NCBI GenBank assembly: GCA_964016885.1
Contig: OZ024753.1
Location: 30,194,001-30,258,000, forward strand
Origin: Eledone cirrhosa
Lineage: Eukaryota
Direction: 5' to 3'
Length of the DNA stretch: 64,000 nucleotides
Shown: piece after piece, positions 1,128 to 17,686 of the stretch
Numbering within the stretch: position 1 is the first letter of the stretch
Layout of the letters: every line of letters begins with the position of its first letter
Notes under the pieces: model-generated
Told to the model about the DNA's origin: nothing
The model's input: the letters and a program-made list of their open reading frames with translations, nothing else
Databases searched by the model: none
Translations under genes and position numbers: made by a program

Positions 1128-1362
1128 CTACGATTTTCACGAAACGTTGACCGGATCCAAAATTAAGGATACGTTCGCCTATGAAGAGACCATAAGAAAT
1201 GCGGGACCCTGAACGTGTGGAGTTCATAGTGTTGTTGACATATTTGATCTGGGGTTCCACTCTTACCCAGTAATCTGTCGCTAGGGATGCACACAGACAA
1301 ACAAGTGCAACAATTATTATGAACAAAGTCACTTGAACGTAACGGCGTTTTAGTTTTTCCAT
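1128..1362 (-). CDS. Clarin-family (CLRN-like tetraspan membrane protein) first coding exon, copy A
   Basis: Translation MEKLKRRYVQVTLFIIIVALVCLCASLATDYWVRVEP...ISYGLFIGERILNFGSGQRFVKIV. A basic N-terminus, TM1, the SLATxYW motif and YGLFxG...GxGxR match the clarin exon-1 pattern. Donor AG|GTAAGA at 1128/1127; 235 nt, phase 1. Confidence 0.85.
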
Positions 1363-1864
1363 TTCTTATATCCAAAGCGTCTGCTCTGTAACTTCTAACT
1401 TCTCACGAGGGAACGTTTTTTTCGTTTGTTTGTTTCAATTATAAAATAAAGAAGTTTTCCTAACAATATCTACAATTTCGTTAATACATATTTTCGTTAT
1501 TGTTCCCGATATAGTTGATTACGACTGCTAACATGATTATTAATGCAGGCGGTTATATCAGATCTTGTCGTCAAGACGAATGACCTGTCTACTTCTAACT
1601 GCTTCTATTTCCTATCACTTGCGCGCACACACACCCACAATAACATGTCGTCACCAGTTAAACAATATGATCAACACCCCATTGTACAACCACCGCGCAA
1701 CCAGCATCGACCGGGCTCTACATAAATTCAACAGTCTTTTATTGTCAATCATTTTCACTACATAACTTACTGAAGGGGATATGTAAACGAACATTACCTA
1801 CACACATTCCAGATCACCAGCGCGCGCACACATGAATGTGCTTTTGTGTACACACACACACATG

Positions 1865-1943
1865 TATATATATATATATATATATATATATATATATATA
1901 TATATATATATATATATATATATATATATATATATATATATAT
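1865..1943. repeat. (TA)n microsatellite
   Basis: Pure TA run. Confidence 0.95.
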
Positions 1944-2187
1944 ACACACACATAGGGTGTCCCCACAAAACGTATACATACTTTGATTACCTGTACAGGC
2001 AATATATTAAATGTATATAAATTAAATGTATATATGTATATATATATATATATATATGTAAAGTTATATTTAAATTGTTGGGTTGCAACTAGTAAATATT
2101 TATAACTGATATAAAAGCACTCGACAAATATTTGGAGTATATTTACAATATTAAATAAATGGAAACTATATTTATAAAACCATATTT

Positions 2188-2251
2188 ATTTCATTATATA
2201 TATTTCAGGGATATCATATTAACAATATGCTATGCCTTCCTCAGACAAAAT
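2188..2251 (-). ncRNA. Minimal type I hammerhead ribozyme-like motif (Penelope-associated type)
   Basis: Minus strand reads ATTTTGT-CTGAGGA-AGGCATAGCATATTGTTAATATGATATCCCT-GAAA-TATATATA-ATGAAAT. It has a CUGAnGA/GAAA core, an imperfect long stem II, a palindromic AT stem III, and stem I ATTTTGT/ATGAAAT with G-U pairs. Confidence 0.6.
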
Positions 2252-2440
2252 ACAATATAAACAGTTTTATAGATAAATAGATTCGACATACCGTAACAAC
2301 ATCTACTTGCATTTGAGAAGGTTGATTTGGTAGTGACAAAATTGTACACAGAGAGAAAGAAAGAGAGAGAGAAAGAGAGAAAAAAAGGAAAGAAAGACAG
2401 AAAACGAAGAAAAAGAAAAAGAAGAAATGCATGGAACAAA

Positions 2441-3385
2441 TATATATATATATATATATATATGATATATATGTATATATATATGACATATATATATATA
2501 TGTAATGTATATATATATATATATATATGATATATATGTTATATATATATATATATGTAATGTATATATGTATATATATATATATATATATATATATATA
2601 TATATATATATATATATATAATGTATATATATGATATATATATATATGTAATGTATATATGTATATATATATATATATATGATATATATATATATATATG
2701 TAATGTATATATATATATATATGATATATATATATATATATGTAATGTATATATGTATATATATATATATATATATATGAATGTAATGTATATATGTATA
2801 TATATATATATATATATATATATATATATATATATATATATATATATATATGATATATATATATATATATATGTAATGTATATATGTATATATATATATA
2901 TATATATATGATATATATATATATATATATGTAATGTATATATGTATATATATATATATATATATATATATGTATATATATATATATGTATATATATATA
3001 TATATATATATATATATATATGTATATATATATATATGTATATATATATATATATATATATATATATATATATATATATATATATGTATATATGATATAT
3101 ATATATATATATATATATATATATATATATATATATGATATATATATATATATATATATATTTATATATGATATATATATATACATATATATACATATAT
3201 ATACATATATATATATGATATATATATATCTAATGTATATATGTATATATATATATATATATATAGATGATATATATATATATATGTAATGTATATATGT
3301 ATATATATATAATGTATATATGTATATATATATAATGTATATATATATATATATATAATGTATATATATATATATATATATATAC
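2441..3385. repeat. Long degenerate (TA)n array with TGTAATG and TGA interruptions
   Basis: Directly visible. Similar arrays occupy 4983-5377, 6197-6377 and 6516-6573. Confidence 0.95.
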
Positions 3386-3564
3386 ACAGTTCAAGAGTAA
3401 CCAATCTTAAAGAGAGAGATGGAGATAGGAGAGGAGATATGAGAGGAGAGATTGGTGAGTTAGTTAGAAGCCAAAGCGTAAAGGCATGTGCTCAATGTGC
3501 AATATGCAGTAGAAAGCAGCTATGTGGCTGGGTTCATGCAGAAGTTAGGTGCGCAGAGCTGGAA

Positions 3565-15098: not shown

Positions 15099-16167
15099 CA
15101 TTCATCAAGCACTTGTAGCACAATATGAAAACAGTGTGTTGCTGCTCTTGACTGTCAACAAATGGTGATACAAATGCAGAGCTTGTTTAGCCCTAAAGCT
15201 AAGTCCAGTGTATTTATTTGAATTAAATTAATGATAAAAAAATTTTTTTTCAGACTTTATATATGGTTGCGGTAGAATGACACAATTTTTCAAGAGCTTA
15301 GGTCACCTCTCTCCCCAAATACAATACAGTGACTCCCTCTTAAAAGTGCCACCTCCATAAATGTGTCACCCAGGGCGGACCCTCTCCCCACCCCTAGCTA
15401 TGCTCATAAGAGTGTTTGGTTGTGTTGTCTCACAATTGCCAGCTGTAATGCCATGTATGTTTTGAATTACCTCAAGAAAGAGAAACATGAAATAAAGTCT
15501 CTTGCTCAAGGACACAACGCATCACTAGGTCCGAGAATTGAACTCGCAGCCCCACGATTGCGAATCCAACTTTGTAACTACTAAGCCTTCACAAATAAAA
15601 GACGTAAATAGCTACATGTCGCCGAGAAGAGGTTTAATATATCAATTTAGATGTATCAATGAAAAGAATCTCAATGGCAACCAGGTAGAGAACAGAAAGT
15701 TAGTAGACATCTCGAGCAGGTAGCCTGATACAATGGATTATCTTTTATCTTTTAAAACGTTTATCAAACCCCGCAGGATAAAAAAAAAGAGAGAGAATTT
15801 CAATTATTTTGAAAGCTTACTCATAACCTCGTTTTTCTTTCTCTTATCATTCTACGTCTGACTGTGTCAACTAACAAAGGTAACAGTTGGCAAGACAATG
15901 GTCATGTAATTATAGTTGAAAAAAAAAACAGAACGGTCTCTGTACTTCCAGATATTACTATATTTTAATGATAATTTGATGTGTTTTGAACAAAATTAAT
16001 GGACAAACACATTCTCATATTTGTACTTTAAATAAAACTGTGACAAAAGTGATATCTTAAATATGTAGGGTATATATTTTTGTTGGTAAATTTGTTTTTC
16101 CTAAAGTTTTTGCTCTGCTTTAAACGAACATGGCTTTGAAATAGGCCAGAAATTATCCGTTTATTAT

Positions 16168-16452
16168 TTAACGGGGACAAAGGTACGCTTGGAGTTCTCG
16201 GGTATGGAGGTGAATATTACACCTGTCATGCTTTGGAGGTGAGTATTACACCTGTCATGCTTTGGAGGTGAATATTACACCTGTCTTGCTTTGGAGGTGA
16301 AATTTATGTTTATCCTATTGTGTGTTTTAAACAAATAGGACATTCAAAACTTGGAAATCATGCGTTTTTCACTTAACTGAAAATAATCCAAAGCTAGACC
16401 TGCGTAATATTCACCTCCAAACCCGAGAACTTAGAAGGTGCTACCCCGTTAA
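16168..16452. mobile_element. Foldback/MITE-like element with internal 29-bp tandem repeats
   Basis: Termini TTAACGGGG...CCCCGTTAA. Inner inverted repeats AGTTCTCGGGT.TGGAGGTGAATATTAC / GTAATATTCACCTCCA.ACCCGAGAACT. Three 29-bp repeats at 16206-16300. Confidence 0.6.
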
Positions 16453-16599
16453 AAAAAAAGCGATTCATTTCCGACAGTTTTGAATGTGATTTTCGTTCAA
16501 AACACATAAAAGACAACAGGAAAAACGTATTAATAATACGAGAGGAGTGTAATTGTAAAAATGAACCTTTTTGTTAACACTCCATAGTAAGAGAAAGGT

Positions 16600-16924
16600 C
16601 AGACCTACCAACCTCTAAAAACCCAAACCGGGAGTACCTTGAAAAAAACAGCCCCAAAACGGGGAGAAATGAGGCAGAATGGGGAGGTCTTACATAATTG
16701 TTTCTACTTTAGGCACAAGGCCAGCAATCACCCAGTGCATTACTGGTACTTTATTTTATCGACCCCGTAAGGATGAAAGGCAAAGTCAACCTCGGCGGGA
16801 TTTGAACTCAGGGGAAATCTTACATAATGAAAGCTATACTCATTTTCACAAGAGAAGACATCTCTCACCCACCCCAAAGTGGGTGGCTGATCTCCCCGTC
16901 AGACGGGGAGAGCTGACAGGGCTG
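16600..16924 (+). mobile_element. MITE with CAGACCTG-type TIRs, containing a SINE family 1 insertion (16699-16810)
   Basis: Same element as 17193-17349, 29730-29898, 33623-34007 and 50438-50698. Confidence 0.8.
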
Positions 16925-17192
16925 TAATATACTGTTTATGTTTAGAGAATGACATAAACGTAGACATTTAAAATTCATCAATTTACTAAAAAGTAAAGAT
17001 TTCGAGCTTAACAAAAAGAAGAACCAATACATTTTTTAAATACTAAATTTTTGTCATGCTCTTAAATACTAATTCACAAGCAATTTATGTTTCTCCTATT
17101 GTTTTTGGTGTGTTTGAAACAAATTGGAAATTATCTCCAACAACTTTAACTTTGAAAGCATTTAGTTAGTGATATTTTTGAAACAGAAATTG

Positions 17193-17349
17193 CAGACCTG
17201 CCAACCTCTGAAGACCATGAAAAAAGGTGCCCCAAAACGCGGAGAAATGAGGCAAAATGGGGAGACTACATAATGAAATCTCTACCCATTTTCAAAAGAG
17301 AAGACATCTCTCACCCACCCCAAAATGGGTAGGAGAGTTGACATGTCTG
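17193..17349 (+). mobile_element. MITE with CAGACCTG-type TIRs (copy without SINE)
   Basis: CAGACCTGCCAACC...GTTGACATGTCTG, flanked by an AAATTG direct repeat. Confidence 0.8.
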
Positions 17350-17448
17350 AAATTGATAAATATTCTAAAGGAGAAAAAAACAAAAACCAAAAAAAAACCC
17401 TCATGAGAACAATAATAATAATGAGGAGAAGACAAGCAGATATCTCAC

Positions 17449-17686
17449 CTACTATATCGGACAAACGATCCCCTAGTCCGTAGTTCAGCAATATTCCACC
17501 TCTGAAGAGTCCATAGTGTACAGAACCGTGGTACCGACGTGTATTGGCTATGTTTTCTTTTCCTGTCACCAGTTTTGGTTCGACACACACCCAATAATCT
17601 GTTGCTAAAGACATCATTAATGTGACAATTGCTCCTGTTATAAACAACAGTGTGATGACAATAAACGGACGCTTTCTCTTCTCCAT
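17449..17686 (-). CDS. Clarin-family (CLRN-like) first coding exon, copy B
   Basis: Translation MEKRKRPFIVITLLFITGAIVTLMMSLATDYWVCVEP...GSVHYGLFRGGILLNYGLGDRLSDIV carries clarin motifs. Donor AG|GTGAGA at 17449/17448; 238 nt, phase 1. About 45% identical to copy A by manual alignment. Confidence 0.87.

Follow-up and report, generated by a model that had tools for sequence, protein, structure and literature searches.

The DNA described here, 64,000 nucleotides of the octopod Eledone cirrhosa (contig OZ024753.1; G000:C13:30194001-30258000 in our coordinates, hereafter the window), carries on its minus strand two intact first coding exons of a clarin gene, the proximal exon A and the distal exon B. 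They lie 16 kb apart, each with its own ATG, as the original prediction for this stretch had said. Clarins are membrane proteins of hair cells, known in people from Usher deafness. We extended the window by 200 kb on each side, giving 464 kb without a single N, and exon-wise hidden Markov models (HMMs) run over the whole of it returned two exon 1s, one exon 2 and one exon 3, with everything else at E 0.08 or worse. All four are listed in Table 1.

Two first exons and one constant region

Exons A and B are tandem homologues on the same strand and in the same phase, with 37 of 79 residues identical (47%, close to the 45% first estimated; tblastn E 2e-17 within the window). Exon B encodes the N-terminal tail, the predicted first transmembrane helix (TM1) and the strands of the first extracellular loop. 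An in-frame TAA stands two codons before each ATG, and therefore neither frame extends further. By codon position, A and B agree at 46 first, 52 second and 22 third sites, each of 78; the proportion of differences is 0.37 at nonsynonymous sites (pN) and 0.85 at synonymous sites (pS), the latter saturated, so that the ratio of the two substitution rates (dN/dS) is not computable. Because of this codon-position pattern and the pS and pN values, which speak for long purifying selection, we regard both exons as maintained coding sequence.

Either first exon alone scores under the whole-protein cut-off of 27 bits for the Pfam family Clarin-2 (PF25807): exon B reaches 21 bits (E 2.9e-4), the best Pfam match of exon A is Claudin_2 (E 0.011), and a homologue search with exon A alone found none among 24 candidates. 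Exon 2 passes the cut-off at 30.8 bits, as do the full-length relatives P0003 and P0006 (65 and 54 bits), and a family search of the genome gave its sole above-cut-off Clarin-2 match 16 kb left of the window. It is there, as had been supposed, that the shared constant region lies: exons 2 and 3, 16-17.5 kb left of window position 1, encode the predicted TM2-TM4 and the C-terminal tail and are in frame with both first exons. The exon-2 acceptor (TTTCAG/TAAGC) is compatible with both phase-1 donors. Both first exons had been expected to end in phase 1 with a glycine (IV-G/GT); the phase holds, and the glycine does not, since after splicing the split codon (G + TA) becomes valine. The modelled transcripts are open to one common stop, giving 229 amino acids (aa) with A and 230 aa with B, over modelled introns of 17,249 nt (A), 33,570 nt (B, with A skipped) and 929 nt (between exons 2 and 3).

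Neither an exon 2 nor an exon 3 was found between A and B by the exon-wise HMMs or tblastn, in agreement with the earlier reading, and the window is free of N. The further variable exons that had been suspected outside the window did not appear: a protein HMM with stops read through, together with nhmmer, detected no third exon 1, intact or broken, in the 464 kb, about 246 kb of which lie upstream of B. With stops read through, the next-best exon-1 match scored 2.4 bits, less than the 3.3 bits of a reversed control, and only the two copies had a meaningful score in nhmmer. We rejected an exon-1-like match at window positions 32718-32786 (2.4 bits, no ATG or exon frame, under the reversed control). 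Three whole-genome protein searches returned exons of the clarin locus only; two weak PF25807 matches on other contigs (E 5.7 and 5.9) were absent from these later searches and were dropped. Genome-wide clarin counts, resting on the one family search and the three protein searches, are lower bounds.

Table 1. Features of the clarin locus; plain coordinates are window positions, those with G000:C13 are contig positions
Feature	Position	Strand	Remarks
Exon A, proximal first coding exon	1362-1128	minus	235 nt = 78 codons + 1 nt; ATG at 1362; donor GTAG/GTAAGA
Exon B, distal first coding exon	17686-17449	minus	238 nt = 79 codons + 1 nt; ATG at 17686; donor GTAG/GTGAGA
Exon 2	G000:C13:30177878-30177693	minus	186 nt, phase 1 to 1; shared by A and B
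Exon 3	G000:C13:30176763-30176495	minus	coding part to stop; shared by A and B
Intron start leading out of the window toward the shared exons	1..1127	minus	
Upstream region of A	1363..1562	minus	putative 5' untranslated region (UTR)/promoter
Upstream region of B	17687..17886	minus	weakly homologous to upstream of A; putative 5' UTR/promoter
48-bp array (92.5 copies, 97% matches)	9444-13883	.	4.4 kb; no clarin exon
18-bp array (66.9 copies)	13900-15098	.	adjoins 48-bp array; no clarin exon

Isoform pairs and exon orthology in octopods

The nearest proteins to the locus are octopod clarins, and the layout, which was to be looked for in other cephalopods, appears in the gene models of two Octopus species. 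RefSeq holds two isoforms each for Octopus bimaculoides (X1, XP_052825960.1; X2, XP_014786516.1) and O. sinensis (X1, XP_029640341.1; X2, XP_029640342.1, identical to O. vulgaris CAI9726900.1). Within each species the N-termini differ (X1 and X2 first exons are 43-45% identical) and the C-terminal parts are identical at 150 of 150 residues, starting at the exon 1-2 junction; between the two species this constant part has 11 differences (139/150 identical). The N-terminal swap on one constant region, with the same two N-terminal types and the same junction as in Eledone cirrhosa, is thus present in both pairs, and these models, as models and not RNA junctions, agree in splicing each variable exon to the constant region.

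Exon B is 75% identical to Octopus X1, and exon A is 52-53% identical to the Octopus X2 exons. In our main trees of the first exons (19 rows, a mixture model among them) B clusters with the X1 exons (99/97, mixture model) and A joins those of X2 (93/90), making B the orthologue of the RefSeq X1 N-terminus and A that of X2; a 7-row LG tree joined A and X2 at 97.7/97, and an 8-row first-exon tree under the mixture model gave no resolution. All of the octopod-like first exons found (9/9) fall into these two types. Trees in which A and B of Eledone cirrhosa form one clade, as after a species-specific duplication, were rejected (approximately unbiased test, p-AU 0.02), as were those uniting X1 and X2 of O. 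bimaculoides (p-AU 1e-91). Because Argonauta hians has a clear B type (model GAB1600513.1), the duplication is likely to predate the Argonauta-Octopus split.

A full-length clarin of 230 aa, P0159 (a Logan protein, 11 contigs), belongs to neither type, and the tree places it in a single group with both (95/92). Its position outside A and B is uncertain at 78/78, and the root of the tree is insecure, the four outgroup rows not lying on one side of a branch; P0159 is a candidate for the pre-duplication form, from another cephalopod lineage. The clarin models P0011, P0015 and P0018 (Liolophura, Lineus and Lingula) carry an isoform label too, X2 or X3.

The exchanged part of the protein

Exon 1 had been said to encode TM1 and most of the large extracellular loop, and AlphaFold models of O. 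bimaculoides X2 and X1 (56-row alignments; predicted local distance difference test, pLDDT, 91 and 90) bear this out. Four transmembrane helices and a claudin-like extracellular sheet are predicted for these two orthologues. In the models exon 1 contributes TM1 and the strands of the first loop, as far as residue 76 or 79, and the shared exons contribute TM2-TM4, the second-loop strand and the C-tail. By this prediction the swap takes in TM1 and the greater part of the extracellular sheet. Foldseek with the X2 model returned GSG1L, GARLH4, TARPs and claudins, at E 2e-6 to 2e-4 among the matches listed; many proteins of this kind are auxiliary subunits of ion channels.

The two types differ in their N-glycosylation sequons and in their rates of change. 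Sequons at 43 and 47 are present in all four A-type exons (N43, NNT, and N47, NST, in exon A), whereas two of the five B-type exons (those of Eledone cirrhosa and Argonauta) have none and the other three have one; both Octopus X1 forms, with their one sequon, differ in this from exon B of Eledone cirrhosa. P0159 has two. The human sequon N48 stands at about the same place in the first loop, a correspondence by position only, and passages of PMC12226551 report poorer trafficking and stability when it is lost. Four of the five B-type exons have one Cys in the first strand of the extracellular sheet (WVCV; codon 35 of exon B, window 17582-17584, minus strand), whereas this loop is free of Cys in all four A-type exons.

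A-type exons diverge faster than B-type exons. Between O. bimaculoides and O. sinensis, identities are 58/76 for A, 75/79 for B and 139/150 for the constant part (Fisher p about 0.001), and between Eledone cirrhosa and O. bimaculoides they are 40/75, 59/79 and 113/150, respectively; the extra change in A is located in the loop (21/48 versus 39/52). Relaxed constraint or positive selection may lie behind it, the two being indistinguishable from proteins alone.

Surrounding DNA, alternatives and significance

The interval between A and B had been described as almost entirely transposable element and satellite. Tandem arrays do account for 7,762 of its 16,001 bases, and to that extent the description is confirmed. 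The 48-bp and 18-bp arrays yield spurious open frames of 1,595 and 1,773 codons. A 175-aa open frame at 4338-4862 (minus strand) has a weak GIY-YIG match (E 0.028, under cut-off) and is probably a fragment of a Penelope-like retroelement. Open frames repeat every 55 nt within the intron that separates exon A from exon 2 (G000:C13:30185300-30190600), which points to another tandem array, and 30 kb upstream of B an exon-like, non-repetitive open frame of 61 codons (48045-48227, minus strand) has no Pfam match.

On the exon inventory, the splice phases, the open frames, the matching RefSeq pairs and the orthology of the exons, we consider it very probable that the locus is a single clarin gene of an octopod, with two first coding exons that have diverged and with shared exons 2 and 3, and that it would yield two four-pass isoforms, likely from separate starts. 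The tandem duplication would have taken in the first exon and its upstream region and would be older than the divergence of Eledone cirrhosa, Octopus and Argonauta; each copy would be transcribed from its own start, and the donor of A or B spliced to the single exon-2 acceptor. Transcripts from B would skip A inside their 33.6-kb intron, and those from A would use the 17.2-kb intron. Promoter choice would then select the extracellular face set on a common body and C-tail (a fast-changing A face with two glycan sequons or a conserved B face with zero or one), and the difference between the two isoforms would cover TM1 and the greater part of the large extracellular loop. That each exon has its own promoter and is used in a tissue-specific way is what we infer. 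In ATG-anchored global alignments the regions upstream of A and B are alike (0 to 12 of 500 shuffles reach the score, over six lengths from 50 to 400 nt) and the introns after them are not (236 to 268 of 500), which weakly supports duplication of the upstream region together with the exon.

Several observations weigh against this one-gene reading. Splice junctions and transcription starts of the Eledone cirrhosa clarin were not observed in RNA. For the exon 2-3 stretch no RNA data set was listed, only four runs of unrecorded kind from one study; their contigs on 17340-18500 are two short, low-depth pieces (17664-17814 and 18189-18409) with no joints and with the donor not covered, and are evidence neither way. 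The RefSeq X1 and X2 records are automatic models; NCBI isoforms are built from transcript alignments, and the read support of these particular models is not visible. Other species were compared by protein models and not by exon order in DNA, and Argonauta returned a B-type model only. The A-type clade, at 93/90, is not a starred one, and exon A is nearly as near to the Octopus X1 exons (47-50%) as to those of X2. Finally, the upstream regions did not reach significance in an unanchored local test (67 of 1000 shuffles; 63 of 2000 genomic windows), and the ATG-anchored test was chosen after it.

With the transcription start unmapped and T-rich tracts some 90-120 nt upstream of both ATGs, A and B could be mutually exclusive exons behind one shared non-coding leader, the same two proteins being selected by splicing. 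We think this improbable: the weak likeness 200-400 nt upstream of both ATGs fits a duplicated promoter or UTR better than a short acceptor, and the T-tracts, judged by eye without a splice-site model, have no close following AG.

It is somewhat harder still to believe that one exon is an orphan duplicate, no longer spliced in Eledone cirrhosa, and that the X1/X2 models are annotation artefacts. The missing RNA junction would suit this, and P0005 (82 aa, beginning like O. bimaculoides X1), P0035 and P0145 seem to be stand-alone frames that run from exon 1 on into the intron; however, these records change at the donor position, as we would expect of gene calls on unspliced DNA. Both exons, moreover, are intact with canonical donors, B is conserved like the constant part, and the A-type sequons are kept in every row.

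That these are two ordinary tandem clarin genes, and that the assembly collapsed or was misjoined at the intervening satellite and so dropped the exons 2 and 3 of B, is very improbable: a 5.6-kb satellite block does lie there, but the 464 kb holds no N, and genes old enough to differ as the Octopus first exons do would need ongoing conversion to keep identical C-termini (150/150 in both species). A protocadherin-scale array with many variable exons and stochastic choice, only two of them in view, has the same kind of variable/constant layout and is largely refuted by the lack of a third exon 1 in the 464 kb and by the two types of octopod first exon, so that we give it almost no credence.

The original prediction had likened the locus to the clustered protocadherins and UGT1A, and our one-gene reading keeps the layout and loses the scale. 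As in those systems, a variable first exon precedes constant 3' exons, one shared set lying downstream and none between the variable exons. Clustered protocadherins have more variable exons than UGT1, and an array of that kind would have about ten or more, against two for clarin in 464 kb; stochastic single-cell choice is not evidenced for clarin. The account in PMC1885805, as far as its passages go, gives UGT1 about a dozen variable exons, vertebrate UGT2A two and GCNT2 two or three. The two- or three-exon type, UGT2A and GCNT2, would be the more fitting analogy, with tandem homologous first exons before one constant set and variable exons orthologous across species (same passages of PMC1885805). 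In those clusters the product of the variable exon is part of an enzyme, whereas the clarin exon supplies a tetraspan protein with TM1 and an extracellular sheet; GCNT2 and UGT1 are reported to use distinct promoters (PMC1885805, in part), whereas those of clarin are inferred only.

Vertebrate CLRN1 and CLRN2 share the family (PF25807) and the predicted four-pass fold. Vertebrates, according to PMC13067776, have diversified their clarins by way of separate genes whose partners in the mechanotransduction complex overlap in part, whereas Eledone cirrhosa has one locus that would diversify by first-exon choice. A function in mechanosensory hair cells is known for mouse clarins (excerpts of PMC12226551 and PMC13067776), and excerpts of PMC6031363 describe hair-cell-like receptors in cephalopods and call the hearing role of the Drosophila clarin homologue unclear. 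By analogy with vertebrate clarins only, the octopod gene may act in cephalopod mechanosensory cells, where its two isoforms could differ in trafficking or partners. A bolder proposal, and in our view an unlikely one, is that the clarin-1/clarin-2 division of labour of vertebrates has been rebuilt inside one octopod gene: a B isoform that is conserved and poor in glycans and an A isoform that evolves fast and is glycosylated twice would have separate promoters, serve different sensory cells (e.g., hair cells of the statocyst as against receptors of arm, sucker or skin) and act as interchangeable auxiliary subunits, tuning mechanotransduction channels via the swapped TM1 and sheet.

A literature search by title and abstract start found nothing on a cephalopod clarin, with most subscription journals and supplements outside its scope, so that gene lists could mention one; the "clarin" passages seen in PMC9282427 concern Clarinet. 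The X1/X2 pair, already in RefSeq as automatic labels, is apparently undescribed, while the layout itself is a known way to diversify proteins. The value of the locus would lie in a domain swap made by nature in a deafness-gene family, with two extracellular faces set on one body and retained among octopods. Should the isoforms divide by cell type, they would be markers of cephalopod mechanosensory cell classes and would allow a clean test of the function of the clarin first loop and its glycan.

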